Below are positions 5,090-60,477 of a stretch of DNA of 64,000 nucleotides, piece by piece; position 1 is the stretch's first letter; each line of letters begins with the position of its first letter. The position numbers and the translations under genes were made by a program. The stretch lies in sequence record MH791411.1; one strand, written 5' to 3'. Source of the stretch: Escherichia phage Ecwhy_1. The notes under the pieces were generated by a model, which worked only from the letters and a program-made list of their open reading frames with translations, had not been told where the DNA came from and did no database searches.

Positions 5090-5136
5090 AATAAATCCTA
5101 TAGAAAATGGGAGTACAATGTACTCCCAGATTTAGA

Positions 5137-5691
5137 TTATAGTTTAATTACTTCTTGGATACCAGTATCCATTGCTTTCTTAGTGCGTGTATCAGAAACT
5201 ACTGTACATAAATGTTCAATATTTTCACTTGGGAATGTGTTAGTATCAAGAATTTTGGAGTTCCAGAAACCTTTACGGAACTTAGCATAATCAGTACACT
5301 GGTCAATTTTCATTTTCTGAAGATTGTTGAACTGTGTACGTCCTGACTCGATAGTTACCATAAGTTCTTGATAAATCTTAGGATCGAGATTAGGAACCTG
5401 TTGTTGAATCTGTGACATCACAAACTTCTGGTCAACACCTTCACGACCTTTAAAGTATGTTTCGATGGTTTCTTTCAATGCATCCTTATACTTATCAGAA
5501 ACTTGTACTTTTTCTTGAATGACAAGAGTGTATTTACTTAGTTGACTTTCTGATGCATCATAGTACTTTTTAATATTACCTTCAAATTCAACAGCACGGT
5601 CATGTGCATCTACATACATACTAACTGAACCAATTGCCATAAGACCGAATACAACAACAACACCAATCAATGCAATAATTTTACCATTCAT
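5137..5691 (-). CDS. LemA-like membrane protein
   Basis: N-terminal TM helix; C-terminal ESGRTQFNNLQKMKIDQCTDYAKFRKGFWNSKIL resembles the LemA-family C-terminus as recalled from memory. Confidence 0.45.
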   Translation of the reverse strand: MNGKIIALIGVVVVFGLMAIGSVSMYVDAHDRAVEFEGNIKKYYDASESQLSKYTLVIQEKVQVSDKYKDALKETIETYFKGREGVDQKFVMSQIQQQVPNLDPKIYQELMVTIESGRTQFNNLQKMKIDQCTDYAKFRKGFWNSKILDTNTFPSENIEHLCTVVSDTRTKKAMDTGIQEVIKL

Positions 5692-6782
5692 AACTTGTTA
5701 TCCCTCATATAAAGGCCAATGAAAATAGATACAATCAGTAACAAAATAGAAGCACCGATGAGAACATCTTTACGTGGTTCCATTTTTACAGACAAGTACT
5801 CGAACTCTTTATTAGAGAGTCTTTCAAACTTTGTGTCAATATTATGCACTTCTTTGCTCAACAAGTCAAGAGTTAATTTTTCATTTAATGCATCCATTCG
5901 CATCTTAGCATGTAGTTCTTCGTTCTTCATGCCTTGTGCAAAGGAAGTGCTATCAAATTTAACAATCTTCCCATCATTATCAATTCCAAAGAACATAATA
6001 ACATCATTCTTCTTACCACCACGCCACGAAGCGAGTGTTGCCTCAACAAAATCTACGTTTTTATAATCATAAACCAAAACTTGGATGTTGACTTGTTTAC
6101 GTGCACCCATAGTTTTTAGTTCTTCACGCAGATACTCATCATAACCATCTACATTATAATTAGTAGTGTTGATTACATGGTGTGTTTTATAATAGTCTAC
6201 CACACTTGGGTATTCTGGTAATGTACTAAGATATTTCTCATCATACATTTCATGTAATTCACCAGGACTAAACAATGAGTTTTTATCAGCGAACAGATAG
6301 TTAATATAAGAACTTTCTGCGGCGGCATAATCCCCAATGTTAACCTGTTGCCAGCGGGGAGGGGTCATTGTACCCTGGCGGTTTACTCGCTCAATCTCAA
6401 ACTTCCCTACAGTACTTTTTACATACCAGTCAACTTCGTATGAATAATCAAATACCTTATAGGACTCACATTCACGATGGGATTTCCCCTTACTATCATA
6501 ACGAGTTCTGCATTTCTCGTGCCACGTGTAATGCTTACATGAGCTTGATTGTGTACAAAACTCCTTGTGATTATATTTGGATGTTACCTGCCCATTTAGA
6601 ATCTCTACATCGTACAATTGGCTGTAGTTGATTGCATATGAGATACCAAGCACAAGAGCAGCACCAACTATACAACAACCAATATGAATCAACAGTTCTT
6701 TAGTACTGATATGCTTATCATACATGTATTTCATAACAAATACAACGATAAGTGAAGGAATCAACAGAATAATAAAATTCAT
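5688..6782 (-). CDS. membrane protein with N- and C-terminal TM segments, possible LemA partner
   Basis: hydrophobic N-terminus and C-terminus; 4-nt overlap with the LemA-like gene. Confidence 0.45.
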   Translation of the reverse strand: MNFIILLIPSLIVVFVMKYMYDKHISTKELLIHIGCCIVGAALVLGISYAINYSQLYDVEILNGQVTSKYNHKEFCTQSSSCKHYTWHEKCRTRYDSKGKSHRECESYKVFDYSYEVDWYVKSTVGKFEIERVNRQGTMTPPRWQQVNIGDYAAAESSYINYLFADKNSLFSPGELHEMYDEKYLSTLPEYPSVVDYYKTHHVINTTNYNVDGYDEYLREELKTMGARKQVNIQVLVYDYKNVDFVEATLASWRGGKKNDVIMFFGIDNDGKIVKFDSTSFAQGMKNEELHAKMRMDALNEKLTLDLLSKEVHNIDTKFERLSNKEFEYLSVKMEPRKDVLIGASILLLIVSIFIGLYMRDNKL

Positions 6783-6785
6783 GTA

Positions 6786-7475
6786 TTAGTCCAGTTTAAG
6801 TTTATTGAGACAATAGGAGATTTGGATAGCTTCACGTGCTGCATCATACAGAGGGTGATGTAATTCCAAACCATTAATACCACATTTTTCTGCATACTTC
6901 ACGAATTTAGCTAACTGCACTGACACAATCTCATCCATTTCGGTGCGAGCTTCTTCATTCAATAAACGCTTCAGGGTTCGTGCGTTTTCAGGAGCATCAT
7001 ATTTCCACAAATCACCAACATTCAATAGTTTTAAGTGATTAGCTTGTAAAATACTACAGTCGAAGTTGCAGCCATTTCCCCAAATTGAATGTTCAACCTC
7101 TTTACCATAACAATCAAAACGGATATCTTTCCAGAAATCGACAATACCATTAGAAGTAAAGATTTGTTTGGATTTACCATTAGGACCGTACAATTCTGGT
7201 GCAACAAGTGCCATAGTACTGGCAACTTCAGCATATGCATTAGGATATTCCTTCTGACATGTATTCATCCAGAAATCCATTGCACCTGCATCTGATTTCA
7301 GCCCAGCGTTGACTTGTGCTTGGTATGGTAACTTAACATATACAAATTGTCTGATATCATGTTCAGGTTTACTTGGAACAACTACTGCTGCATAATTTGG
7401 AATAATAATATCATAACCAGAGTTTTCAGGAGTACCGAGAGCTTCGATATCAACACTAACATGACGGCGTTTCAT
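6786..7475 (-). CDS. dexA: DnaQ-like (DEDDh) 3'-5' exonuclease, DexA-like
   Basis: VSVDIEALG (exo I), WGNGCNFDCSIL (exo II), HHPLYDAAREA (exo III, H-x4-D). Confidence 0.55.
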   Translation of the reverse strand: MKRRHVSVDIEALGTPENSGYDIIIPNYAAVVVPSKPEHDIRQFVYVKLPYQAQVNAGLKSDAGAMDFWMNTCQKEYPNAYAEVASTMALVAPELYGPNGKSKQIFTSNGIVDFWKDIRFDCYGKEVEHSIWGNGCNFDCSILQANHLKLLNVGDLWKYDAPENARTLKRLLNEEARTEMDEIVSVQLAKFVKYAEKCGINGLELHHPLYDAAREAIQISYCLNKLKLD

Positions 7476-7524: not shown

Positions 7525-7553
7525 ATTATATTGAAAACGCCCTCTTGTGTCAA
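7525..7553 (-). promoter_or_regulatory. sigma70-type promoter, consensus TTGACA-N17-TATAAT on minus strand
   Basis: minus-strand TTGACA = rc(7548-7553), 17-nt spacer, TATAAT = rc(7525-7530); 50 nt upstream of the ATG at 7475; embedded in an imperfect palindrome. Confidence 0.45.
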
Positions 7554-7556
7554 CTA

Positions 7557-8774
7557 TTACTTGTTAGCTTTTTCAGCAATTTCACGAAGAGTATCTTCGA
7601 GTTCATGAGAGAGTTTTGCGATTTCAATCTTAGCACGCTCACGCTCTTCTTTACCTTTCTTCTCTTCAATCAGTACTGCTTCGATGCTATCGATCATTGT
7701 TTTGTGTACATTACGCAATGTTTTAATATCCACGATACCACGATTATTTGCTTTAGCAGCATCCAACATGTTAGTTGCTACCATTTTAGAGTTTACTTCG
7801 AGTAAACGGTTAGTTTCATTGTCAATCAGATTACCCAACTCATTGTCTTTACGTTGACGTTCGGAAATCAACTGTTCAGCCAATTGTGATTTCCATGCTG
7901 GAATAACAACTGATTTCAAATCCTCAAACTTAGAAACAGTGTTGAGGTTTACTTTCTTCATACTCATCAGGCGAGGACCGCTCAGTTCACACATCATGAT
8001 AAGACGACGAATCTTATCTTCCTGTTTAGAAAGAGCTTCACAAATCATCTTTTGCTCCTGGATTGCAAAAGAATCAACGTCAGGGTTCGCTTGCATTGCT
8101 ACCAATTCAGCATCTTGTGCTTTGGTAACTTCTTCCAACTCAACTAACGTATCACGCAGTTCAAAGAGATAGTTTTTGTTTTCGTTGTAAGCAGTGTCTA
8201 GCCATGCACATTCCCCATGCTGGCGGTTAATACCAACCTGAAGAGTGTTCATGATTTCATCAATTTGTTCTTTACTGTTTTTGTACTGATCGCCAACTTT
8301 CTGTTTAGCATTAACAAAAAGTTTTTTGACCCAGCCTACGATTGATTTATCATCCTGTAGACTATCAATATCAACTGCACGAGTCAATGTCAAGATAGTA
8401 GTAATAGACTTACCGAATTCGGTATTATCATCAGTGACGTTAACTTTTGACATGATTTCATCAGCCAAACGTCCTACACCTGCCCCAGCGGTGGTTCCGA
8501 TGGTATTAATATTCTGCACAGTTAACGCCATACTGTTGCCTTTAGTATCTTTCAGTACTGGAAGTGACTTGGACTGTTGTTCGAAGATATCAGTTGCGTC
8601 AATTGTGTGTGCTGCTGTTTTGGTAGTACGTTTGGCAGTTTTGGTTGCTTTGGCTTGTTTAACTGTTGCTTTTTTCGGATTGATTTCTTTCTCGGACATT
8701 GTGTATTCCTCAGTTAATTTAAGATAGTGTTGCTCAGTGATAAACATTCTACAGGCAACACTCAGTACTGTCAA
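7557..8774 (-). CDS. hypothetical coiled-coil protein, weak resemblance to TelA/toxic-anion-resistance family
   Basis: about 400 aa, Lys/Thr/Ala-rich N-terminus then long helical/coiled-coil stretches; true start probably the internal MSEKEINPKK near 8699. Confidence 0.3.
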   Translation of the reverse strand: MTVLSVACRMFITEQHYLKLTEEYTMSEKEINPKKATVKQAKATKTAKRTTKTAAHTIDATDIFEQQSKSLPVLKDTKGNSMALTVQNINTIGTTAGAGVGRLADEIMSKVNVTDDNTEFGKSITTILTLTRAVDIDSLQDDKSIVGWVKKLFVNAKQKVGDQYKNSKEQIDEIMNTLQVGINRQHGECAWLDTAYNENKNYLFELRDTLVELEEVTKAQDAELVAMQANPDVDSFAIQEQKMICEALSKQEDKIRRLIMMCELSGPRLMSMKKVNLNTVSKFEDLKSVVIPAWKSQLAEQLISERQRKDNELGNLIDNETNRLLEVNSKMVATNMLDAAKANNRGIVDIKTLRNVHKTMIDSIEAVLIEEKKGKEERERAKIEIAKLSHELEDTLREIAEKANK

Positions 8775-14837: not shown

Positions 14838-15356
14838 CTACCATTTCAAAAATTCATTTACATCTAGTTTATACTTCAAAGAATCAACCATATGCAAATC
14901 AATCAGGAACAAACAATACGAAGCCACTGAACTACCACGCCCAAGACCCCAAAAAATATTGTGCTCTTCCATATAATCAACTAACCAGATCATACATCTT
15001 AAAAGCTTAGTCATGTTGTAATGTTCAAACAAATCAATCTCATACATTACACGTTCACGGGCTTCATCCGATGTACATTTCTGTAAAAAGTACTCACGCA
15101 AGTTGATGTTATCGTACACTGGATCATAACGCCATAGTTCATGGTTTTTATCATGTTCTATTGTATAATCCAGCATACGCTGTTCTAAACCAAATTTTTT
15201 ACAATTATCGTTAAATTTCAATCGTTCCGGTTCATCAATCTCCTGTAGCTGTAAGTACTGAATATCTGCACCACAGTTGATTGCATACACGACTGCATTA
15301 AGGTTACATTTTACATCACCATTGGGACTTATAAATCTGTTTCCTTGTACTTTCAT
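14838..15356 (-). CDS. family-C DNA polymerase (Pol III alpha/DnaE-type) palm, N-terminal fragment ending before the catalytic DxD
   Basis: YEIDLFEHYNMTKLLRCMIWLVDYMEEHNIFWGLGRGSSVASYCLFLIDLHMVDSLKYKLDVNEFLKW aligns by eye to DnaE ...ELDVIIQMGFPGYFLIV...[36 protein letters not shown]. Confidence 0.55.
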   Translation of the reverse strand: MKVQGNRFISPNGDVKCNLNAVVYAINCGADIQYLQLQEIDEPERLKFNDNCKKFGLEQRMLDYTIEHDKNHELWRYDPVYDNINLREYFLQKCTSDEARERVMYEIDLFEHYNMTKLLRCMIWLVDYMEEHNIFWGLGRGSSVASYCLFLIDLHMVDSLKYKLDVNEFLKW

Positions 15357-15628: not shown

Positions 15629-18052
15629 TCATCCTCCTAAATTGCTGTTTTGTAATGAAATCAAAAATGTATCATGAACGTAGTTTTCGAATTCATGTGC
15701 AAAGAATCCAAATTCAACTCCTGTGATTTCAAACTCAACACCAACCATCTTACCATGTTCATTGTTCTGAAGTAAAGTGTTAAAGAATGCTTCACCCTTT
15801 CCTGGTGCACAGTATGCAACTGGAATGATTGGCATGAATTTCTTTTTAACTCCATTTTCTTCGTATGGGTGATTCATGAAACGAGGAACAGTGTCAAGCA
15901 TCTCATCAGAAATTCCAGGTATAGCATCTACATACAAACCACGGTTTTGTAAATCAGTTGGGTCTTTCACAAGGTTAGTTGTGTCTTCGCCAATTGCTGC
16001 AAAAATATTTTGACGCAAGCCAAATATTTCACCGAGTGTTCCGTTATCAATTTGCGTGTAACTTCTTGGATTCTTAGAAACCGACACCAATGAACCTGCT
16101 GGTAAAACTTCACGGTATAATATATCATACTGCAAGTTACCTTGGTTGTCAAGTGCTGACATTACTTTATAGTTGCCCATTACCATTCTAAATTTTCCAT
16201 CAGGTATAGTTGCACCAGTTTGGTTTATGATATTTTCCCTAAGTACTTTTTTAATATCACTCAACGTAGTGTAAGTATAGTTCTGACTCAAAAAGTTTTC
16301 TTTTAATAAAATACGTGGTACTTTTTGTAACCCGTATCTATCATCTGATTGACGATGGAAAGCTTGATTTGTAAATGATGGTGTACTAATACACTTAAAC
16401 CATTCACGTTCAAAATAAACAGAAGGTACAATATGTGCACTTAAGTAGTTTTGTCCAAAACCACGTACAATTTTAAGTTTAAATAACTTGGACGCAACAC
16501 CACCTTCAGTGTCATATGCTTTGATGTTGAATTCTAAATTTATATCATCATTTGCACTGAAATCTAAACTTTTTGCATATGCCGTCCCGACCAAGAACCC
16601 ATCTGCGGTGAGGTCCAAACCATATTTGCGAATATCATCAGGTCCACCATCTAATACATAAGATACCTGATTAGTACTGGTAGTTTGTATTTGTGGATAA
16701 GTACTGTGACCGAAATATTCACCCACATGAATACTACCTAAATCACTATCAGTTGTGAAGTCTATTGAGTTTTCTTCTTCTGCGTTCACTAGAACACGGA
16801 ACATCTTCTCTTCACCTATAATATTCTCACCTAAGCTTGAATCATAATATCCTAAATCAATCCAATCTGAACTTTTAAACACTGGCTTTGTTTCACCTAG
16901 ATCATATTCACCAGAGATTACATATGGATATACAACGTTATCTTTCAACTGATACAAATGATTAGGTAAAGGTTTATCACCATCAGCGTATATACCATCT
17001 ACATTGTCTGGACATACCCACATTTGATATGCTTTGAAACGTTGGTTTATAGCGAAGCGGTCAGTGTCATAACTATATGTACTCAAAATATCAACAATTT
17101 CAACTTTGAAATATGCATCACATGCATCAGAGTCATATAGGAATGTTTGCAGAAATTGTCCATTTGGGTTGAAAACCAATCCTGAATCTAGTAACTCCCC
17201 AGAGCTAGTTTGAATATTAACCTTAATTTCTTTATTAATACCAAATACAGGCCATATATTATCAATAGGACGTAGGATTGCATAATCATCAGTAATGTGG
17301 CGAGCAGGAACTTCTGCTGGGGTCATATCGAGTAGACGATACGCTGGATAAAATACTCTAGGAGATAGGTCAGTTGATGTATCAGTTCCTAAAATAAATG
17401 GACGACGGCGACCAAATCCCTGTACAAATAAAGTACTGTTGGAACCGTATTCAATATCGCCAATACAATATAATTTGTCATCATCACCGATTTCGATTCC
17501 AGGAGTAACCCACACTTCCTGACTATCATATTCAATTGTTACTTCATTTGAACCAATTTCACCACTAGGGGAAATGTTACCATAGTACATAACATTTACT
17601 GCTTGAAGATAGAAGTTAATCTGTTCAGAGTTGTTAAATGTACCATCATCTTTACAATGCAATTTAATAAAATAAACATCTTCGGTATTAGTGCTTGCCG
17701 ATAGATCAAATTGAGTTTTATCAATTTTACATTTGTGCTTACCATTAATCAACTTGTTACCAGTAATACCTGATGATATAGGTGTGAGATTAGATTCATC
17801 ATTACCAACATACACTGCGTAGTGATCTTCTGGTTGAAATACTGCATCAGAACTGTCCAAACCCTGAATAGTTAGAATCATCTCTAAGTATTCGTTTTCA
17901 TTAAGTATATAACTATCATCCGTTGTGGTTTCTTTGTTGATACTCAAACGCACAAGAATGTCTTGTCCTTCTTGTATATATCGAGCATCGGCTTTTATAT
18001 CCCATCTAGGGGTAAAAGTTGTCATTATAATTCTCCATAGCCAAGCTACCAT
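15629..18052 (-). CDS. large hypothetical protein (about 800 aa), possibly structural
   Basis: uninterrupted 807-codon ORF; likely start at the internal MTTFTPRWD; no catalytic motifs recognised. Confidence 0.5.
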   Translation of the reverse strand: MVAWLWRIIMTTFTPRWDIKADARYIQEGQDILVRLSINKETTTDDSYILNENEYLEMILTIQGLDSSDAVFQPEDHYAVYVGNDESNLTPISSGITGNKLINGKHKCKIDKTQFDLSASTNTEDVYFIKLHCKDDGTFNNSEQINFYLQAVNVMYYGNISPSGEIGSNEVTIEYDSQEVWVTPGIEIGDDDKLYCIGDIEYGSNSTLFVQGFGRRRPFILGTDTSTDLSPRVFYPAYRLLDMTPAEVPARHITDDYAILRPIDNIWPVFGINKEIKVNIQTSSGELLDSGLVFNPNGQFLQTFLYDSDACDAYFKVEIVDILSTYSYDTDRFAINQRFKAYQMWVCPDNVDGIYADGDKPLPNHLYQLKDNVVYPYVISGEYDLGETKPVFKSSDWIDLGYYDSSLGENIIGEEKMFRVLVNAEEENSIDFTTDSDLGSIHVGEYFGHSTYPQIQTTSTNQVSYVLDGGPDDIRKYGLDLTADGFLVGTAYAKSLDFSANDDINLEFNIKAYDTEGGVASKLFKLKIVRGFGQNYLSAHIVPSVYFEREWFKCISTPSFTNQAFHRQSDDRYGLQKVPRILLKENFLSQNYTYTTLSDIKKVLRENIINQTGATIPDGKFRMVMGNYKVMSALDNQGNLQYDILYREVLPAGSLVSVSKNPRSYTQIDNGTLGEIFGLRQNIFAAIGEDTTNLVKDPTDLQNRGLYVDAIPGISDEMLDTVPRFMNHPYEENGVKKKFMPIIPVAYCAPGKGEAFFNTLLQNNEHGKMVGVEFEITGVEFGFFAHEFENYVHDTFLISLQNSNLGG

Positions 18053-37430: not shown

Positions 37431-37988
37431 TTATTTAGCGTTTTCTTTAACTTCAGCAATACGCTCATTGATTAGTTGAGATACAACAGAGCTATCAACG
37501 GAAGAAAGAATTGATTCAGGAACTAGGGATTTCAAGTGTTTTACATAGTTTGCAACACTTTTTAGTTCTTTGGTTTTTAGTGCTTCTTTGATAATATCCA
37601 AATCTTCTTTTGAAGCTTCAACACGTTCAATAACAACAACGTCTTCTTCTTCAACAACAGGTGCTAGTTCTTCAGCGATTACTTGTACTTCTTCAGATAC
37701 TTTAATTTGTTCTTCAGTATCTACTACATATGATTCGATTACTTCTGGTGCAACATTACGAGATACTTCGTCAACACTAATATCTTCAGCAATTTTCTCT
37801 TTGATTACTTCTACAGGTTTTGCACCGCGAGATTTATAATCTTTAATATTAACTAGAAGTTTATTTGAAAGTTGTAGTTTGTCAATTTCTTCATCACTTA
37901 GTTTGATTACTTCATCTAAGGAGTAGCCTTTACTTTCTAGTGCACGAATTGTATATAGGTCTTGTTTCATTTGTTTATGCTGTTCCAT
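37431..37988 (-). CDS. hypothetical acidic protein
   Basis: ORF track 37431..38075; start moved to the internal MEQHKQ (GGAGA 11 nt upstream) to limit overlap with the upstream nuclease gene. Confidence 0.4.
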   Translation of the reverse strand: MEQHKQMKQDLYTIRALESKGYSLDEVIKLSDEEIDKLQLSNKLLVNIKDYKSRGAKPVEVIKEKIAEDISVDEVSRNVAPEVIESYVVDTEEQIKVSEEVQVIAEELAPVVEEEDVVVIERVEASKEDLDIIKEALKTKELKSVANYVKHLKSLVPESILSSVDSSVVSQLINERIAEVKENAK

Positions 37989-38694
37989 TTGATTCAATTT
38001 CTCCACGTAAAATATAGTATTGTTCAACTCTACCAATCCACATATCAACCGCATCTTTGAAGTCTTGTCCTTCAATAACGAATTCTTGATATTGTAAATT
38101 GTTAGGATCTTTTCTTACACAGATGAAAATTACACCACGCTCAATATTTGTTCCAAACATTTGATTATGCGATAGTGCATATGCAGCGATTTGCATACGG
38201 TAATTTTCGATATGTTCCCATGTCTTTAATTTACGGGAATTCTTATAGTCCATGATAGAAGGAATACCATCATGAACTCCAACTAAGTCAGTTGTTCCAG
38301 CCCATAATCCTTCATAGAATAATGGAACTTCCTGACCCCACACTTCATTGATTCTAGGCCATGCTTCTTCTTGAATTTTGTCAGCCATTCTACGGGCCAG
38401 AACTCGTATCGGCATACCACCTTGGTGGTCTGGCTTTCCATCCAGACGATATTCTAAGTTCTCGTGCATAAAAGTACCAACAGTACATGCTTCTAATGTA
38501 ATCTCATTAGCTTTCTCTTCACCAACAAATTCTCTCCATTTTTTCAACCCCTCATTGTCAGAGGTGGCACTAAGAATTGTTGTTACTGACGGCAGATTCC
38601 CTGTTGGAGTTGAATAAAGGCGACCTTCGGGGCCGCCTTCAATTCTTTTGTAATCAACGTATGTATATCTGCTAACAATTGGTGGTGTGTACAT
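37975..38694 (-). CDS. PD-(D/E)xK nuclease (RecB/Cas4-like fold)
   Basis: TTDLVGVHDGIPSIMDYKNSRK (D...D/ExK) followed by RMQIAAYALSHN (QxxxY motif). Confidence 0.55.
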   Translation of the reverse strand: MYTPPIVSRYTYVDYKRIEGGPEGRLYSTPTGNLPSVTTILSATSDNEGLKKWREFVGEEKANEITLEACTVGTFMHENLEYRLDGKPDHQGGMPIRVLARRMADKIQEEAWPRINEVWGQEVPLFYEGLWAGTTDLVGVHDGIPSIMDYKNSRKLKTWEHIENYRMQIAAYALSHNQMFGTNIERGVIFICVRKDPNNLQYQEFVIEGQDFKDAVDMWIGRVEQYYILRGEIESNGTA

Positions 38695-46191: not shown

Positions 46192-46545
46192 ATGAATCAA
46201 TATAATACTATTCCACCATTTATCACGGTAGTTCAGTGTGATGGTAAAACTTTCATTGGTATTATCAAGATAAAAAGTAAACAGTATACTACTCTTTACT
46301 GCTTTGATGATATGGATGAACCAATGCAAGATGAATTGTTGGGTATAGCACATGATTGGTGGTGGCAAAGCAACAGGTCAATTCCAGTCTGTCTATTCTT
46401 CCAAGAAGAGATGGAGAAATTTGAACCTTACACACAGAGATTCGATACCCCTGCGGTGAATTTCGTTTGTGGTCCAGTAGTTTCTTTAAGTGATTTGCCA
46501 CAAAAACGCATCAAGCGTCGTAATGTGGCTCTTAAGAAGAAGTAA
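46192..46545 (+). CDS. hypothetical protein on plus strand (117 aa)
   Basis: plus-strand ORF filling a gap in minus-strand coding; TATAAAT motif at 46158-46164 upstream; ends overlap convergently with 46532..47170. Confidence 0.4.
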   Translation: MNQYNTIPPFITVVQCDGKTFIGIIKIKSKQYTTLYCFDDMDEPMQDELLGIAHDWWWQSNRSIPVCLFFQEEMEKFEPYTQRFDTPAVNFVCGPVVSLSDLPQKRIKRRNVALKKK

Positions 46546-47170
46546 GATGTTCAACTAAAGCGTTAAGTTGAACTACAATCATTAAGCTGTATGCATAAGC
46601 ATGTGGCTTTTTGAAATATCGTAACTTATTTCCTGCTTGGTCTGTGCCAATAGTACTGTAATCCCATATAGTGGATTCAACTTCACTCCATGTATTCATA
46701 CTTTGGCACTGCCTTTTTCCAGGACGAATCATTGCAATAAACATTGCAAGTTCATCAATGGATTTAGGTTTCCACACATTTAATAATGTAACATGTTTTT
46801 TAATCTGTGAAAGATGTTCAACTATTTCTGGTTCTAACAGAAGATCCCAATTAGGTTCCTGATTCATTAGTTCTTTTAAATGTGCTCTATCACGAACATA
46901 CTGGTAAGCCGATTGTGACAGGATATCTACCTTTTGATATCCCAAGCGTTCGGCTTCTTTATATTGTATGCTGGCTAAACCAGTGATAGGGTCAATTGGT
47001 ATATTATCAAAATGAACACCACTGTTATGGGGGATTAAACCATCCTCCGTAATTTTTTCTGTACTTCGCACACAAGGAAGCTGTGCAATCACTGACTTAC
47101 TATCTTTAAAGTCAATGTCGATATCTGTTCGTGCTTTACGGTACGAATTAGAATTTGTCGAATCCTGCAT
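46532..47170 (-). CDS. family-C DNA polymerase (Pol III alpha/DnaE-type) palm, C-terminal fragment starting at the catalytic DIDIDF
   Basis: [11 protein letters not shown] ~ DnaE [29 protein letters not shown] ~ [35 protein letters not shown] ~ DMIALVALFRPGPLQ; thumb region apparently absent. Confidence 0.55.
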   Translation of the reverse strand: [212 protein letters not shown]

Positions 47171-50004: not shown

Positions 50005-51489
50005 TTATCCCGCTGTATTTTCCCAATCCTTAACATCTATGATACTATGAGGATATTGTGCTTCCTTATAGTATTGTAAACGTTCACGTAAGTGTTTTGC
50101 ACTATATTTGTTTGTACCACTGATATCAAAGATTTCCACGTGGTCTTTGTCTTCTGCACGACGCAACCCACGACCAATGGACTGTATTGTACGAACGAAG
50201 CTTTTTCCTGGTTCGATTAGAACGACATTATACAAACGAGAAATACTGATACCAGTACTTGCTACCCCATAGGTTGCAATGAGTATTTTGTTATCAGCCC
50301 AGCGAATTTCACCATATGAAGATTCACGGTCTTTCTTTTTGGTTTCCCCACGAACAAATTCTGACTTAGGAATACCCAAAAATTCACAAAGCAATTCACC
50401 AGCTTCAAGTCTATCAACCAGTACTAAAGTGTTTCCAGATTCTGCTAACGCACCTATCAGTGATGCTACATATGCCATTCTATCACGGTCAGTAACTAAG
50501 TACTTCAATTCTTCTGCATATGACGCGAACTTTAAATTACTTTTAAGTTTAATACAGTTCACATTACATGTGCTTAGTATTTTTTTATCTTGTAATTCTT
50601 TAGCTGTGATTTTAAATATCACATCACCAACGTTACATTTAATCTTCGCAGCGACAACTTGGTCTTTAGGGATTGTACCAGTTAATCCCCAGCGAAGTGG
50701 GACGTTATTCATAACTTTAGAGAGTACTTGAACTAATGCATCACCACCAGCACCTTGACACTCATCGACAATCACACAAACCACACCATCAATAAAGTCA
50801 TGAACGTCTTGTTCAGTCAGTTCAATTTCACCTTTCTTTGTTTTCTTCCACAAAGAGTTGAATGACTGCCATGTAGTGATTGTGTGTTGGTGACCAAAGT
50901 CTTTCTGTGCACCATAGAACACTCCAGTGTCAAGACCACACATAACATAGTCATCATATGTTTGCTGCACCAAATCAGTACTAGGTACGATAATCACAGA
51001 ACGTCCATACTCTTGTACCTTCTTGGATAATGCCGCTGTGATGAGCGTTTTACCAGCCCCTGTAGCTGCTAATAATAAACCATGTGGGTTTGCAAGGCAA
51101 GCATTAACTGCGTTCACCTGATGCTCTCTGAGCTTGATTGACTTACCTTCCATGTGGTGTCCAGCACCAAACACAACATCACTAAAAATATCTTCATCAA
51201 TTGGTTCAAAATTGAATCCATAATTGACACGATGATCTTCAAGTTCAATATCAATTTTTGCTTCATCTAAGATTGGCAACAACTTATCCAACATGTGGTA
51301 GTAAGTACTGCCACCTAAGTTCATAAACTGTACCTTACCATCCCAACGACCAATACGACCAGCAGGGGTGAACTTAGCGTATGGAAGTACATATTCTGTT
51401 GCACGAATCATCTTCTGACGAATTGAGGGATCTAGTCCCTCAAATTTACAATTAACCTCGTCCAGTAAGGTTAGCTTACAAGTTTTCAT
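50005..51489 (-). CDS. uvsW: UvsW-like SF2 DNA helicase
   Basis: N-terminal RIGRWDGKVQF (as T4 UvsW RYGNWDGRIRL), Walker A ATGAGKT, DEAD-like VDECQ, motif VI QSIGRGLR. Confidence 0.85.
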   Translation of the reverse strand: MKTCKLTLLDEVNCKFEGLDPSIRQKMIRATEYVLPYAKFTPAGRIGRWDGKVQFMNLGGSTYYHMLDKLLPILDEAKIDIELEDHRVNYGFNFEPIDEDIFSDVVFGAGHHMEGKSIKLREHQVNAVNACLANPHGLLLAATGAGKTLITAALSKKVQEYGRSVIIVPSTDLVQQTYDDYVMCGLDTGVFYGAQKDFGHQHTITTWQSFNSLWKKTKKGEIELTEQDVHDFIDGVVCVIVDECQGAGGDALVQVLSKVMNNVPLRWGLTGTIPKDQVVAAKIKCNVGDVIFKITAKELQDKKILSTCNVNCIKLKSNLKFASYAEELKYLVTDRDRMAYVASLIGALAESGNTLVLVDRLEAGELLCEFLGIPKSEFVRGETKKKDRESSYGEIRWADNKILIATYGVASTGISISRLYNVVLIEPGKSFVRTIQSIGRGLRRAEDKDHVEIFDISGTNKYSAKHLRERLQYYKEAQYPHSIIDVKDWENTAG

Positions 51490-51504: not shown

Positions 51505-52323
51505 TTAATTAGTTCGAGTATTATATTCGTACTCAAATGTATATACTAAATCTTTATCACAGTTTGGGTTACTTGCATCAAGAATATCACTGTTAGTAAT
51601 CATCCATTCAATATAGTTCAATGGAACAGTTTCCATTGGTTCGCCTTTGTGTTTACCAAATGGCATGAATTTATAACGCATTGGTGTATTACAGAATGTT
51701 ACGATTTGTTCACCAATGTCACCATTAGGGTCAATATGTCCACGTTCAATCGCAACTTCAATCAATTTGATTAGAACTTGATAACACATAAACACGTCAT
51801 CTTTTGCTGCGTGAGCATTGACTGCACGATGTACATCACGATAGCAACCAAATTTATACCACAAATAACTTAGAGTTAAGTTTTTAAATTCAGTGTCTTC
51901 TGCAAACATCTTCTTAGCTAAACGAAGGGTACAAATCCATTTATCTTCATCGAGCAAGTACTGCGAAACTGAGTTACGATATTTATATTCGTTATCTACC
52001 ATCATTCGGCGGTCAAATTGAACGTTGTGTCCAATAAAATAATTACGACACCCCATTAGTGCGTCAATGTTTTCTAAGTCATCTTTATAACCAATACAGT
52101 TTGCTACATCTTCAGTACTGATAAAATGCACAGCACTTGCTTCTGGTGGTATATCTTTTAGTGGTTTATAACGCAAAGTGTAGTTATCAATAGTATCAAT
52201 ATTCTCATGTGCATCGTGAGGATATGAAATACTAAATTCAATAATATCATCTTCACTTTCGACACCAGTTGTTTCGGTGTCTAGTACTGATACGTTTGAT
52301 AGGAACTCATCTAATTTTGTCAT
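51505..52323 (-). CDS. DnaQ-like (DEDDh) 3'-5' exonuclease, ExoX-like with C-terminal KHKG-containing extension
   Basis: LDTETTG, GHNVQFD, HRAVNAHAAKDD, C-terminal FMPFGKHKGEPMETVPLNYIEWM. Confidence 0.65.
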   Translation of the reverse strand: MTKLDEFLSNVSVLDTETTGVESEDDIIEFSISYPHDAHENIDTIDNYTLRYKPLKDIPPEASAVHFISTEDVANCIGYKDDLENIDALMGCRNYFIGHNVQFDRRMMVDNEYKYRNSVSQYLLDEDKWICTLRLAKKMFAEDTEFKNLTLSYLWYKFGCYRDVHRAVNAHAAKDDVFMCYQVLIKLIEVAIERGHIDPNGDIGEQIVTFCNTPMRYKFMPFGKHKGEPMETVPLNYIEWMITNSDILDASNPNCDKDLVYTFEYEYNTRTN

Positions 52324-52332
52324 TTTATTCTC

Positions 52333-52361
52333 GCATAGAAAAAGGACGCGTAATGCGTCCT
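52333..52361 (-). terminator. intrinsic terminator (AGGACGC-GUAAU-GCGUCCU + UUUUUCUAUG)
   Basis: hairpin 52343-52361 after the stop of 52371..52832. Confidence 0.55.
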
Positions 52362-52370
52362 TATGGATAG

Positions 52371-52832
52371 TTATTCTAAACGTGCATCTTCAATACCAGC
52401 AGCACGTAGTCTCACAATATTGTTTAACTGAAAAGCTTTCATCTCTAAGGATTTAACAATACTGGAAAACGTATTACGGATATATGATACTTCATTTATT
52501 AGTTCGGATAATTCACAAACTTCTTTATCACCTTCAACATACTTTTTACAGTCAGAAGATGAGAGTGCTCGACGATATGCTTCAAGGAAATATTTAAACT
52601 TTTCAGCTTGTAGTTGACGCATTTCAATTTCTAGCATTTCAAGTACCGCTTCTAGTTCTTGAAGCTGACTGAGACGAGTCTCATGCCAGCCTGGAATCTC
52701 CTGAGCAATCTTTTCAATGATGCCAATCTTTTTAACTTCACGACGAGCTTCTTCAGTTTCTTTTTCGAAGTGTTCAATCATGTCGATTATTTTAGATTTA
52801 TCATCTTTGATGATCCAATGCCAAGGTTTCAT
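52371..52832 (-). CDS. uvsY: UvsY-like recombination mediator (tentative)
   Basis: sits between uvsX and the exonuclease/uvsW genes; C-terminal SSIVKSLEMKAFQLNNIVRLRAAG versus T4 UvsY ALDAIKSRGFAIKHIQDMRAFEAG (from memory). Confidence 0.4.
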   Translation of the reverse strand: MKPWHWIIKDDKSKIIDMIEHFEKETEEARREVKKIGIIEKIAQEIPGWHETRLSQLQELEAVLEMLEIEMRQLQAEKFKYFLEAYRRALSSSDCKKYVEGDKEVCELSELINEVSYIRNTFSSIVKSLEMKAFQLNNIVRLRAAGIEDARLE

Positions 52833-53950
52833 TATTCCTCACTACTTCCAATATCAGTACCAAATGATTCATCACCTTTTTCTTCTTCTTTGACTTCTTC
52901 AATCAAAGGGTGACGTTTGAATTGATTCATAACTAAATCAAGACAAGAATCTTCATTACGCATCCATTCTTTACGATATTTTAGAATCTGTTCACCAGTG
53001 TCAATATCAACGTACATTAGACGGTTACCAGATTTAACGATAAGTTCATATTTCTCGAACATATCTAGTAGACCACTGCGTGGGTCCATACCTTTATCCC
53101 AAGGAATTTTAATCTCAACATCTTCAAATGGTTTGTTGTAACGAGTCTTCATGACTTTACATTTAGAACGAATACCACTTACATCTGAAGTCTTGTTGCC
53201 TTCTTCATCTTCTTTAAGTTTTAGTTTACCCATTGCGATAACCATAGAAGATGCATAAATCAAACCACTACCACCAGATACTTTTGGATCAGGGTTGAAC
53301 ATATCTTGGGATTCATAACTATGGTTTACACAAACCATACCAATGTTAAGTGAACCAATCGAGTTTACGCAGTTGGTGATGTAAGCTTTAAGCTGTTTAG
53401 GTTTGTGACCCATATCACCTTTCAAGTTACCAGCTTTCATCTGGTCATTAGCAACTTCAGTATTCAACATACCAATTGAGTCGATAATGAATAATACTTT
53501 TTGACGTTCTTCTTTAGGAGTATTTTCGTATTCTTTACGATACCCTTCGATGAACTCATAGGTAAATTTAGCAACATCACCAATCATACCCATGTTTACT
53601 TTTAGTAGTTTTTCTTCTGAAGTGTCTACACCTAGTGCTTGTAGCCAATCTGAATCCAATGCGTTCTCGGAATCAATCATAACAACAAAGATACCTTGTT
53701 GTTGTGCTTCACGGGCGATGTTTCCAGAAACGATAAATGATTTACCAGAACCAGATTCACCAGCAAACATTGTTACTTTACCTAGTGGAATACCACGGTC
53801 AAAATAACCACTAATACGATAGTTCAAAGCAAAGTTACCAGTACTAATCCATGTATCAGGATCATGAAAGCCTACGCTAACACCAGTATTCTTTTTAACG
53901 CTACCAGTACTATTTTTTAGAATGTTTGCAAAACCACTTGTCATTTTCAT
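52832..53950 (-). CDS. uvsX: UvsX recombinase (RecA family)
   Basis: Walker A GESGSGKS, Walker B FIIDSIG, C-terminal DPRSGLLDMFEKYELIVKSG as in T4 UvsX DPYSGLLDMALELGFVVK. Confidence 0.85.
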   Translation of the reverse strand: MKMTSGFANILKNSTGSVKKNTGVSVGFHDPDTWISTGNFALNYRISGYFDRGIPLGKVTMFAGESGSGKSFIVSGNIAREAQQQGIFVVMIDSENALDSDWLQALGVDTSEEKLLKVNMGMIGDVAKFTYEFIEGYRKEYENTPKEERQKVLFIIDSIGMLNTEVANDQMKAGNLKGDMGHKPKQLKAYITNCVNSIGSLNIGMVCVNHSYESQDMFNPDPKVSGGSGLIYASSMVIAMGKLKLKEDEEGNKTSDVSGIRSKCKVMKTRYNKPFEDVEIKIPWDKGMDPRSGLLDMFEKYELIVKSGNRLMYVDIDTGEQILKYRKEWMRNEDSCLDLVMNQFKRHPLIEEVKEEEKGDESFGTDIGSSEE

Positions 53951-53969: not shown

Positions 53970-54001
53970 ATGAAATAAAACGGGGCAAACTCCGTTGCCC
54001 C
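53970..54001 (-). terminator. intrinsic terminator (GGGGCAA-CGGAGU-UUGCCCC + UUUUAUUU)
   Basis: hairpin 53982-54001 after the gp32 stop. Confidence 0.55.
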
Positions 54002-54019: not shown

Positions 54020-55087
54020 TTACTTACCTTGTTGTTTCAAACGAGCAACTAGTGCAGATGCAGAAAGTTGTTCTTTTGGAGCTTCAGCTACTGGTGCTGG
54101 TGCAGCAGCTACTGGTTCAGCAGCAGGAGTAGGAGTAGCTACTGGTGCTTGCGGAGCAGGAGTTTGTGCAGGAGCAGGTTGTTGTACTGGAGCTTGTGGA
54201 GCAGGTTTGTTTTCACTAATAGTACCAGTTGTTGGTTTTTGTACACCTGCTGGACGGTAAGCGAAAGCCCAACGTGCAGGGTCATAAGGTTTACCATCAA
54301 CAGATGCTTCGAACATTTCTTCGATAGCTTTTAGTTCTTCTGGAGTTGGTTGTTTTGGCATAAAATCATTTAGATTATATAGACCAAACTTTTCAATCGC
54401 TGCCAGTTCTTCTTCATTGAGTGGACGCTCGGACATGGAGAATTGAGACATGTCATAGCTATTGTAACCACCACCATTCTTAGTTTTAACAATACCAAAG
54501 TCACGACCGTGAATGTAGTGAGTTGGTAGTTCTTTGATGCCTGGGTTTAGCAGGATAGATTTAACTTTATCAAAGATATCTTTGTTAGCTAGGATACGAC
54601 GGATTGGGTTTTCTGGAGCAATATCGTCTTTTACTGCTACGCTATCAGGAGCAACGAAACATTGCATTAGATAGGTTTTCTTTTTCCAGTAACGACCAGC
54701 CATTGCTTTCAGTTCTTCGTTTCCAGTTTCATTCGCACTTTGGAACCATTGACGTACTTCTTTAAGAATTGGACATGATTTAGGAACCCACATTTCGTTA
54801 CATGGTACTTGAACGGTAACTTTATCGGTGTGCATACCAACAATACCTTGGAACGTTAGGTTGATCATATCACGTTCACGCCAGAAGAATGGGTTAGACT
54901 CATCAGCATCTGGTAGAAAACGTAGGTTTAGTGGTTCATTGTAAGGGACATTCCAGAAAGCTAGGAAAGAATCGGCTTTACGTTCACCTGTAAATGTACC
55001 ATTCTTCTGTGCTTCTGCTTTTTCTTGTTCAGCTTTTAGTTTTGCACGAATTTCAGCTAGAGTTTGCATATTGGGCTTCCTTGTCAT
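54020..55087 (-). CDS. 32: single-stranded DNA-binding protein, gp32-like, with Pro/Ala/Gln-rich C-terminal tail
   Basis: Cys/His zinc site pattern (PCNEMW...CPILKEV...), ELKAMAGRYWKKKTY as in the T4 gp32 core; C-terminus PAPQAPVQQPAPAQTPAPQAPVATPTPAAEPVAAAPAPVAEAP. Confidence 0.75.
   Translation of the reverse strand: MTRKPNMQTLAEIRAKLKAEQEKAEAQKNGTFTGERKADSFLAFWNVPYNEPLNLRFLPDADESNPFFWRERDMINLTFQGIVGMHTDKVTVQVPCNEMWVPKSCPILKEVRQWFQSANETGNEELKAMAGRYWKKKTYLMQCFVAPDSVAVKDDIAPENPIRRILANKDIFDKVKSILLNPGIKELPTHYIHGRDFGIVKTKNGGGYNSYDMSQFSMSERPLNEEELAAIEKFGLYNLNDFMPKQPTPEELKAIEEMFEASVDGKPYDPARWAFAYRPAGVQKPTTGTISENKPAPQAPVQQPAPAQTPAPQAPVATPTPAAEPVAAAPAPVAEAPKEQLSASALVARLKQQGK

Positions 55088-55242: not shown

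Positions 55243-60477
<5,235 letters not shown>

Follow-up and report, generated by a model that had tools for sequence, protein, structure and literature searches.

Two DnaQ-like 3'-5' exonucleases in a jumbo coliphage: an ExoX-like enzyme among recombination genes and a member of the Rv2179c/DexA family

Why would a phage encode two 3'-5' exonucleases of the same superfamily, and are these two versions of one enzyme or two enzymes with different jobs? The question is raised by a stretch of 64,000 nucleotides from Escherichia phage Ecwhy_1 (MH791411.1), analysed here in its entirety and called the window below. It is 99.8% identical to Escherichia phage vB_Ec-M-J and belongs to the Asteriusvirus (121Q/PBECO4-type) group of jumbo coliphages. 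A preliminary description had located two DnaQ-like genes in it, and both open reading frames (ORFs) were found exactly there, intact:

6786..7475, minus strand: ORF1, 229 aa, ATG start; DEDDh exonuclease of the PF16473 (Rv2179c/DexA) family, T5-type subfamily
51505..52323 (coding sequence including the stop), minus strand: ORF2, 272 aa, ATG start; ExoX-like DEDDh 3'-5' exonuclease

The pair of exonuclease genes

The two proteins had been held to be distinct, and this is what we observe: both DEDDh sets are intact, and no relatedness between ORF1 and ORF2 is detectable by BLASTP (E 2.3) or by hhalign (probability 0.2%). The DnaQ-like genes of the window are exactly two, for when both family profiles were run against its 357 ORFs, each matched its own ORF only. 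A third such gene is thereby rejected, the remaining annotated 'exonucleases' being of other types: the product of 37975..38694 is a PD-(D/E)XK protein, that of 59413..60471 a FEN-type 5'-3' nuclease. The small 'DNA polymerase' ORFs do not encode exonucleases. Nor do the two enzymes fall into one DexA clade, the outcome that the preliminary description had named as fatal to its view, as judged by pairwise and profile scores. In the pairwise comparison, ORF2 and its phage relatives match ExoX (1e-15 to 1e-24), DnaQ more weakly and DexA not at all, while the sole match of ORF1 is a T5-type protein (5e-14).

We are inclined to think, with somewhat more assurance than doubt, that the two DEDDh (DnaQ-superfamily) 3'-5' exonucleases of the window are separate in evolution and do different jobs, ORF2 trimming 3' ends in recombination and repair and ORF1 breaking down host nucleic acid. 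Direct observation here covers homology, the intactness of both active sites, the architecture of the domains, synteny and signals in the sequence; from these we infer substrates, expression timing and biological roles. Both genes are real. Identical proteins have already been deposited and annotated (as 'exodeoxyribonuclease X', 'exonuclease' or '3'-5' exoribonuclease' in GenBank), and both domain families are in Pfam, so that the finding is correct and ordinary. Small as a discovery, it has its practical value in annotation.

ExoX kinship of ORF2 and its C-terminal module

ORF2 is made of two parts:

51772..52287, minus strand: exonuclease domain, residues 13-184, delimited by its PF00929 match, invariant columns and mapping onto ExoX
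51508..51717, minus strand: C-terminal module, residues 203-272, with the FGKHKG loop (G223-K224-H225-K226-G227), then Y237 and W240; equivalent of PF12843/PF20600

The protein passes the RNase_T family PF00929 with 55.8 bits against a gathering cut-off of 24 (E 1e-14) and falls into phrog_192 (E 3.6e-60). Its catalytic set comprises D15 and E17 (Exo I, D-x-E), D104 (Exo II), H171 and D176 (Exo III, H-x4-D). In an alignment of 44 homologues, down to about 25% identity, four of these residues are invariant and D104 is kept in 43; they pair with D6, E8, D85, H134 and D139 of ExoX. Alignment with Escherichia coli ExoX runs end to end (BLASTP E 5e-16, 262 columns, 23% identity) and includes the C-terminal motif. 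ExoX is also the best match of ORF2 in the PDB by sequence (4FZX), and it supplies the top Foldseek matches (4FZY/4FZX, E 8e-10) of an AlphaFold model with pLDDT 94.6 and pTM 0.89. The DEDDh motifs and the ExoX-type C-terminus that had been read from the letters of this gene are thus borne out. The profile searches proposed at the time place PF00929 and, at the C-terminus, PF12843 (24 bits against a cut-off of 22) above threshold, the match to PF20600 (ExoX-like_C) being weak, at 16.8 bits against 26.5.

Distributive 3'-5' exonuclease activity on both single- and double-stranded DNA defines an enzyme of the ExoX type. The core of ORF2 is predicted to take nucleotides off DNA 3' ends by two-metal catalysis. 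[quoted passage not shown] Across the ORF2 family, position 134 is R or K in 42 of the 44 sequences and position 137 K or R in 41, with R or K at position 106 in only 20. Because these basic residues are kept, we predict that ORF2 acts on duplex ends and on 3' tails or flaps as well as on single strands. Blunt duplex ends are another matter. A Leu12-Gln13 wedge unpairs the terminal base pair in ExoX and is essential for digestion of double-stranded DNA, L12T and Q13A both impairing activity (PMC3753628). Activity of ORF2 at such ends is uncertain, because the wedge is replaced there by V21/E22 and is variable across the family (V, L or I at position 21 in 30 of 44; mostly D, N or E, and never Q, at position 22).

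ORF2 thus shares with ExoX (4FZX/4FZY/4FZZ; NF005937) an architecture in which a DEDDh core of the RNase_T type is followed by an FGK(Y/H)(R/K)G...Y..W module. It differs in being 52 residues longer, with a helix at the N-terminus, about 17 residues inserted past Exo II, a lengthened linker helix and about 30 additional residues at the C-terminus, and in being phage-encoded and set in a UvsX/UvsY/UvsW block. The ExoX equivalog model of NCBIfam, NF005937, has a cut-off of 202 bits; ORF2 reaches 51.9 and E. coli ExoX 463, so that ORF2 is ExoX-like rather than an ExoX orthologue.

The C-terminal module deserves a comment of its own. The segment that first drew attention to it, FMPFGKHKGEPMETVPLNYIEWM, corresponds to residues 219-241. 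G223, K224, G227 and Y237 are invariant in the 44 homologues, and the module matches residues 174-203 of ExoX one by one. The models PF12843 and PF20600 cover identical stretches in other proteins. An exhaustive search with a profile of the module retrieved 7,791 representative proteins, among them standalone proteins of 64-140 aa, tandem arrays and exonuclease fusions. The module of ORF2 is the same autonomous domain as the one in which E. coli ExoX ends. ExoX cut to residues 1-167 stays active, and the crystallised protein ends at that same residue (PMC3753628). Since the domain is dispensable for catalysis in ExoX, it most likely targets ORF2 to a partner or a substrate. A PDB search with the module profile gave no significant match, and no solved structure contains the module; a literature search on DUF3820, PF12843, PF20600 and 'ExoX-like' returned nothing on its function. 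MutL and ExoX are said to interact, and a literature search on the ExoX C-terminus and this connection met no open paper addressing it. So widespread a module, present in E. coli ExoX itself, is a modest lead for experiment. It is also promiscuous, and is seen fused to other domains.

The neighbourhood of ORF2 and the proofreading question

The preliminary description had put the second exonuclease between a uvsX/uvsY-like pair and uvsW. This placement is accurate, the minus-strand order being SSB-UvsX-UvsY-ORF2-UvsW:

54020..55087, minus strand: gp32-like single-stranded DNA binding protein (SSB; PF08804, phrog_1192)
52832..53950, minus strand: UvsX-like RecA-family recombinase (PF00154, phrog_97)
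52371..52832, minus strand: UvsY-like recombination mediator, upstream of ORF2 (PF11056, phrog_231)
52342..52362, minus strand: terminator-like hairpin, 8-bp stem and T-run, between the uvsY stop and the ATG of ORF2 (18 nt downstream)
50005..51489, minus strand: UvsW-like SF2 helicase, downstream of ORF2 (PF04851/PF00271, phrog_16; annotated UvsW in relatives)

Only 15 nt separate the stop of ORF2 from the helicase gene. The same order, SSB-UvsX-UvsY-exonuclease-UvsW, recurs in all seven RaK2-type lineages examined (vB_Ec-M-J, 121Q, GAP32, XbC2, fHe-Yen9-04, Munch and Vibrio phage 2.275.O). The Vibrio phage keeps the exonuclease gene between uvsY and uvsW at only 32% identity of the ORF2 protein, and GAP32 keeps it there despite the insertion of an HNH endonuclease. 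The part in recombination-dependent replication that had been proposed for ORF2 is plausible from its gene context. RaK2-type jumbo phages keep the gene in a fixed place, with uvsY on one side and uvsW on the other, and its product therefore most likely trims 3' ends or flaps of the recombination and repair intermediates made by UvsX, UvsY, UvsW and gp32. The linkage to the recombination block is absent in PA5oct, in Ab18 and in three distant jumbo-phage contigs. In PA5oct and Ab18 a DNA ligase gene is found upstream of the homologue, no more than about 3 kb away; in the three contigs it lies near topoisomerase II/Smr, near PrkA/SpoVR, or near nothing informative.

The hairpin that precedes ORF2 complicates its expression. 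GAP32 and Vibrio phage 2.275.O have a hairpin at the same place with unrelated stems, the structure being kept and the sequence not, and the record of Munch annotates the one past uvsY as a terminator. Because this terminator-like element separates the two genes, co-expression of ORF2 with uvsY is not assured; ORF2 would depend on transcripts that read through a partial terminator past uvsY, at a level below that of the filament proteins. An ExoX-like gene held in one position across these phages, behind a conserved hairpin of this kind, provides one more modest starting point at the bench.

It might be objected that this position is accidental, and that one or both exonucleases serve mainly in host takeover or counter-defence, by turning host DNA or RNA into nucleotides or by destroying immune nucleic-acid signals and free 3' ends. 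The ORF2 family does occur in many unrelated contexts outside the RaK2-type clade, and its C-terminal module, found standalone, in arrays and in fusions, is a promiscuous one. Against an accident, the place between uvsY and uvsW persists in homologues with as little as 32% protein identity and has outlasted the endonuclease insertion of GAP32, and no defence-related or anti-defence family was matched (the PADLOC library lay outside the search). We consider this explanation rather unlikely.

A different proposal comes from the databases, where the names 'DNA polymerase exonuclease subunit' and 'Pol III epsilon' imply that ORF2 is a proofreader. It would act in trans as a subunit of a phage DNA polymerase, notably of the Pol III alpha, split and minimal, that this phage group possesses according to Iyer et al. 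(2021, PMC7824862). One unit of this polymerase, which has neither an exonuclease nor a PHP domain of its own, is encoded in the window:

14838..15356, minus strand: N-terminal unit of the split minimal DNA polymerase III alpha (PF07733; Iyer et al., 2021, PMC7824862)

The ExoX-like gene is found together with this unit in RaK2-type phages, in Vibrio phage 2.275.O and in the PA5oct group (there about 8 kb apart). The structural study of ExoX suggests a possible ability in proofreading or end-cleaning (PMC3753628). The NCBIfam models on which ORF2 scores best, PRK06309/06310, bear the name 'Pol III epsilon' and give a full-length alignment, with 77-79 bits against 236-245, ORF2 remaining under all curated NCBIfam cut-offs. 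Against this, ExoX matches ORF2 and its relatives at 1e-15 to 1e-24, and E. coli DnaQ matches them at only 2e-4 to 5e-10. DnaQ has the DEDDh fold and motifs in common with ORF2, and its structure 1J53 is among the Foldseek matches, but the sequence alignment (BLASTP 2e-4) spans the N-terminal part only, and in place of an epsilon-type tail ORF2 carries the ExoX-type module at its C-terminus. The epsilon equivalogs tell the same: TIGR01406, for proteobacterial epsilon, reaches 50.7 bits against 222.7 and covers the N-terminal half only (positions 4-132 of 231), and NF004316 reaches 41.4 against 196, again over the N-terminal part. In Pol III, the PHP domain of alpha is where epsilon binds. The minimal phage polymerase is devoid of every other Pol III domain (Iyer et al., PMC7824862). 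Co-occurrence, for its part, is confounded by common ancestry, and in some 27 Pseudomonas phage records that have the ExoX-like gene no minimal Pol III unit could be detected (38 against 11 records). These phages also possess a classic family B polymerase (Iyer et al., PMC7824862), of a type that in T4 has its own proofreading domain (PMC12153337). Finally, the position of ORF2 ties it to recombination genes and to neither polymerase unit. A proofreading subunit therefore strikes us as improbable.

One may nevertheless speculate, at still longer odds, that in RaK2- and PA5oct-type jumbo phages the split minimal Pol III alpha finds the proofreader or end-trimmer that it lacks in the ExoX-like protein, docked via the PF12843/PF20600 module. 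If true, a stripped-down C-family polymerase-exonuclease pair would work beside the family B polymerase, possibly for recombination-primed synthesis near UvsX, UvsY and UvsW.

The matter of names is not trivial. Genes of the ORF2 type bear three conflicting ones: exodeoxyribonuclease X, Pol III epsilon and DNA polymerase exonuclease subunit. The protein itself is present at 100% identity in phages EC.P1 and Turkey3 and at 93.8% in 121Q and PBECO4. It is a direct member of PHROG 192, 'DNA polymerase exonuclease subunit', together with 121Q gp9, GAP32_275, PA5oct EST35_0270 and Ab18 ORF40; this name implies a polymerase subunit, for which the analysis of ORF2 turned up no evidence. The evidence favours "ExoX-like 3'-5' exonuclease" as the better name.

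ORF1, its family and its transcription unit

To return to the first gene, its product passes PF16473 (Rv2179c-like) with 36.7 bits against a cut-off of 27 (E 4.5e-9, profile positions 2-175 of 177) and falls into phrog_255, 'exonuclease' (E 4e-32). The DEDDh set D9/E11/D139/H206/D211 is invariant in 29 homologues. A predicted structure (pLDDT 91.4) finds T4 DexA as its top Foldseek matches in the PDB (8KEL/8KEN, E 1.5e-5, TM 0.55-0.57), with RNase T nearly equal, and its viral fold neighbours include DexA-type and Rv2179c-like exonucleases.

ORF1 had been said to resemble T4 DexA, and this needs qualification. The likeness stands as to family and fold: DexA belongs to PF16473 too (79.9 bits), is a single-domain DEDDh enzyme of about 228 aa like ORF1, and gives the best fold match in the PDB. 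It does not extend to sequence, where identity is 14% at a TM of about 0.56 and neither BLASTP (E 0.43) nor hhalign (probability 0.4%) sees a relationship. PDB sequence searches with ORF1 and with its family profile gave no significant match, and NCBIfam matched neither ORF1 nor DexA. DexA has a dimer-tetramer switch and discriminates 5hmC (PMC12153337). The sequence kin of ORF1 are of the T5 type. Of the 326 phage records matched by tblastn most are T5-like, and among the 60 of them that were listed none is a T4-type phage. A T5-type protein compares with ORF1 at an hhalign probability of 98.8% (E 4.4e-17) and a BLASTP E of 5e-14; T5-like exonucleases such as Salmonella phage NR01 gp016, 26-29% identical over the full length, are the closest kin outside jumbo phages among the matches listed.

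Quite another identity is suggested by the labels 'metallopeptidase', 'peptidase' and 'putative metallopeptidase' attached to homologues in many GenBank records of T5-like and jumbo phages and in BFVD. These are annotation only. No peptidase family was matched, and a match to PF16473 above cut-off, an invariant DEDDh set and a DnaQ-like fold, with DexA and RNase T as best PDB matches, rule out a peptidase, a reading to which we give practically no credence. ORF1-type genes are therefore widely mislabelled "metallopeptidase" in these two groups of phages.

Four further features surround the gene:

7525..7553, minus strand: sigma-70 promoter upstream of ORF1, TTGACA, 17 nt, TATAAT (12/12 consensus), followed by an AAGGAA ribosome-binding site
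5688..6782, minus strand: 364-aa ORF with hydrophobic termini (phrog_2087), 3 nt from ORF1
5137..5691, minus strand: 184-aa ORF annotated as LemA or virion structural, overlapping the preceding ORF by 4 nt
5108..5128, minus strand: terminator-like hairpin, 9-bp stem and T-run, which would close the ORF1 transcription unit

PBECO4 keeps the promoter, with differences in the spacer only. We predict that host RNA polymerase uses this perfect sigma-70 site to transcribe ORF1 early, and the two tightly packed downstream ORFs (5137..6782) are probably co-transcribed with it. DexA degrades host DNA for nucleotides in T4 (PMC12153337), and by analogy ORF1 most likely breaks down host nucleic acid from 3' ends for nucleotide salvage. 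The substrate may be DNA or RNA: Rv2179c, after which the family is called, is named an exoribonuclease in Pfam, and DexA is a DNase. An early-type promoter, in a family that includes a scavenger of host DNA (PMC12153337), is also what the takeover explanation discussed above would draw on for this gene; we keep to the reading in which breakdown of host nucleic acid is the task of ORF1 and recombination and repair that of ORF2.

The neighbours of ORF1, TelA-like and membrane proteins, say nothing on nucleic-acid metabolism, and Pfam scans of these and of several large ORFs of unassigned function gave no informative family. The context is also different in GAP32 and in T5-like phages: the NR01 gene lies beside genes for RNase H and an HNH endonuclease, whereas ORF1 lies beside its TelA-like and membrane-protein genes.

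Two unrelated exonuclease genes

ORF calling places two genes with ATG starts exactly where the preliminary description had read two DnaQ-like exonucleases:

6786..7475 (-), ORF1, a DEDDh exonuclease of 229 aa
51505..52323 (-), ORF2, an ExoX-like DEDDh exonuclease of 272 aa

The segment FMPFGKHKGEPMETVPLNYIEWM, quoted there, is ORF2 residues 219-241. The two enzymes are distinct, as was claimed, without detectable relationship to one another (BLASTP E 2.3; hhalign 0.2%). Nor do they both cluster with DexA, exonuclease A of T4. All-against-all comparisons pair ORF2 and its phage relatives with E. coli exonuclease X (ExoX) at 1e-15 to 1e-24 and with DnaQ, the epsilon subunit of Pol III, at 2e-4 to 5e-10, but give no significant match to DexA or RNase T, while the sole match of ORF1 is a T5-type protein (5e-14). 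The observation is thus correct and the classification drawn from it largely so; its functional part rests on context. Among the 357 stop-to-stop ORFs of the window, the family HMM of each exonuclease matches its own ORF alone. The public annotation has two further 'exonucleases' and two small 'DNA polymerases'. Neither 'exonuclease' is a third DnaQ-like gene: that at 37975..38694 is a PD-(D/E)XK protein, that at 59413..60471 a FEN-type 5'-3' nuclease.

Nothing in the finding of two exonucleases is new, identical proteins being already deposited and named. Escherichia phage vB_Ec-M-J is 99.0-99.8% identical to the window in the two stretches searched, several other coliphages 98-99.7%, and 121Q and PBECO4 about 82-87%; all are Asteriusvirus jumbo myoviruses of 350-385 kb. 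With near-identical phages in GenBank, all genes treated here are therefore already there. The by-products are modest: inconsistent or wrong database names for genes of both types, the clade-wide presence of the ExoX-like gene in a recombination block, behind a conserved hairpin, and the abundance of an uncharacterised FGKHKG module.

The ExoX-like enzyme and its C-terminal module

That ORF2 is an ExoX-like enzyme, C-terminal segment included, is borne out by a near-full-length alignment: ExoX residues 2-218 align with ORF2 residues 11-264 (E 5e-16), ExoX FGKYRGKAVSDVAERDPGYLRWL standing opposite ORF2 FGKHKGEPMETVP...YIEWM. Pfam recognises PF00929 RNase_T (55.8 bits), PF12843 (24 bits against a cut-off of 22) and, weakly, PF20600 ExoX-like_C; the PHROG match is phrog_192. 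ExoX is the best PDB match by sequence, and again the best fold match of a high-confidence AlphaFold model (pLDDT 94.6, pTM 0.89). Across 44 homologues, with identity down to about 25%, catalytic D15, E17, H171 and D176 are invariant, as are G223, K224, G227 and Y237 at the C-terminus; D104, H225, W240 and D258 are nearly so. Invariant positions being found in both, the C-terminal module (residues 203-272) is as strongly constrained as the active site.

The structure of ExoX displays two dsDNA-specific features, a complementary-strand site, R87/K101/R104, and a wedge, L12/Q13 (PMC3753628). The former corresponds to R106/R134/K137 in ORF2, and basic residues are kept at positions 134 and 137 in 42 and 41 of the 44 homologues. 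The wedge becomes V21/E22; in the same set position 21 is usually aliphatic and Q never occurs at position 22. Because the basic site is kept while the wedge differs, the prediction that ORF2 acts on the 3' ends of ssDNA and of tailed duplexes is well founded, whereas unpairing of blunt ends is uncertain.

ExoX reduced to residues 1-167 is still active (PMC3753628), and the C-terminal module is therefore not catalytic. Its profile matches 7,791 representative proteins (E <= 0.001) among 1.84 billion. Many are proteins of 245-285 aa with the module C-terminal; others are standalone (64-140 aa), carry 3-10 tandem copies, or are larger fusions. In a Pfam scan of ten atypical matches, PF12843 and PF20600 coincide on the same stretches; five of the ten have RNase_T as fusion partner, preceded in one case by a T4 gp30.3-like domain, and no credible partner domain appears in the other five. 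No PDB chain matches the module, and a literature search found no paper on its function. We infer an autonomous targeting module, binding either DNA or a protein partner. The metagenomic proteins P0173, P0191 and P0205 consist largely of tandem FGKxKG modules, up to 10 copies in a 630-aa protein; the Pfam scan gave them no credible partner domain, and the extra weak hits of P0173 look like low-complexity noise.

Recombination block and polymerase

ORF2 lies, as proposed beforehand, between the uvsX/uvsY pair and uvsW: gp32-like SSB, UvsX, UvsY, ORF2 and a UvsW-like helicase follow one another, all on the minus strand. This order recurs in vB_Ec-M-J, 121Q, GAP32, XbC2, fHe-Yen9-04, Munch and Vibrio phage 2.275.O; in the last it is kept though the ORF2 homologue is only 32% identical. 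GAP32, a Cronobacter phage, has an additional gene, for an HNH endonuclease (L008:4106-5014), between uvsY and the exonuclease, whose start it overlaps by 14 nt; this appears to be the insertion of a mobile element, with the order of the genes around it undisturbed. The order is absent from PA5oct, Ab18 and three distant jumbo-phage contigs. In the three contigs the homologue has topoisomerase II/Smr or PrkA/SpoVR nearby, or nothing informative. PA5oct (L006:2825-4195) and Ab18 (L007:1096-2001), from two unrelated Pseudomonas phage groups, both have a DNA ligase gene upstream of the ExoX-like gene, within about 1-3 kb; this proximity could be accidental, or could point to a pairing of end-processing with ligation.

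Two terminator-like hairpins punctuate the block:

53982..54001 (-), between the gp32-like SSB gene and uvsX
52342..52362 (-), after the uvsY stop and ahead of the ORF2 ATG

The latter ends 18 nt before the ORF2 ATG, without room for a promoter. At this junction 121Q, GAP32 and Vibrio phage 2.275.O likewise have a hairpin with a T-run, though in GAP32 and the Vibrio phage the stems are unrelated in sequence, and the record of Salmonella phage Munch has a terminator annotated there. The hairpins suggest graded expression along the block, and ORF2 and uvsW would be expressed by read-through, at a level below that of uvsX and uvsY.

ORF2 might instead be the proofreader of a phage DNA polymerase, which we consider quite improbable. 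For these phages, their 'group 2.2' of jumbo phages, Iyer et al. 2021 (PMC7824862) report two polymerases, one of the classic family B and one a minimal Pol III alpha that is split and lacks all accessory domains. The window has the N-terminal unit of the latter, a possible C-terminal unit and a neighbouring ORF:

14838..15356 (-), small 'DNA polymerase' of 172 aa, a Pol III alpha catalytic domain fragment (start of PF07733), the N-terminal unit of Iyer et al. 2021
46532..47170 (-), 'DNA polymerase' of 212 aa (phrog_11778), no Pfam family matched; may be the C-terminal unit
15629..18052 (-), 807 aa, no Pfam match; directly upstream of the N-terminal unit and called 'virion structural protein' in vB_Ec-M-J

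The ExoX-like gene does co-occur with the N-terminal unit in RaK2-type phages, Vibrio phage 2.275.O and the PA5oct group, but about 27 Pseudomonas phage records have it without that unit. Furthermore, ORF2 is nearer to ExoX than to DnaQ, and epsilon models match its N-terminal half alone or fall far under their cut-offs. Epsilon docks on the PHP domain, which the minimal polymerase lacks.

ORF1, its family and its transcription unit

ORF1 belongs to PF16473, the Rv2179c-like 3'-5' exoribonuclease domain (36.7 bits against a cut-off of 27), and to phrog_255 'exonuclease'; its DEDDh set, D9, E11, D139, H206 and D211, is invariant in 29 homologues. Its supposed resemblance to T4 DexA holds for domain family and fold, but not for sequence, where no relationship was found: DexA likewise exceeds the PF16473 cut-off, and its structures 8KEL/8KEN are the top PDB fold matches of the AlphaFold model of ORF1 (pLDDT 91.4; E 1.5e-5, TM about 0.56), with RNase T just behind. 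Its fold neighbours among viral proteins include exonucleases of the DexA and Rv2179c-like types, and its sequence relatives come from other jumbo phages and from T5-like phages, L009:3977-4678 being an example of the latter. The homologue is labelled 'metallopeptidase' or 'peptidase' in many of the 326 phage records that match; motifs and fold being those of a DEDDh exonuclease, we reject this label as a propagated misannotation. BFVD/UniProt names use it too. DexA has a host-DNA scavenging role (PMC12153337), and by analogy we propose that ORF1 might act in nucleotide salvage, on DNA or RNA.

The surroundings of ORF1 are as follows:

8746..8774 (-), sigma-70 promoter, 11/12, upstream of the TelA-like gene
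7557..8774 (-), TelA-like toxic-anion-resistance protein (PF05816, E 1.8e-37)
7553..7525 (-), perfect sigma-70 promoter, TTGACA-17-TATAAT, 12/12, upstream of ORF1
5688..6782 (-), 364-aa protein, hydrophobic at both termini (phrog_2087)
5137..5691 (-), protein annotated LemA or virion structural in relatives
5128..5108, strong hairpin with T-run, after these two membrane-protein ORFs

PBECO4 keeps the ORF1 promoter, its spacer alone changed, and an AAGGAA ribosome-binding site follows. The two membrane-protein ORFs come after ORF1 with a 3-nt gap, then a 4-nt overlap. Given this promoter, the tight spacing downstream and the closing hairpin, ORF1 appears to head an early unit transcribed by the host polymerase. 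The called start of the TelA-like ORF, TTG at 8774, overlaps the 11/12 promoter, so that the gene probably starts at the downstream ATG annotated in vB_Ec-M-J. With its TelA-like, phrog_2087 and LemA-annotated neighbours, ORF1 sits in an envelope-stress-like setting, odd for a nuclease.
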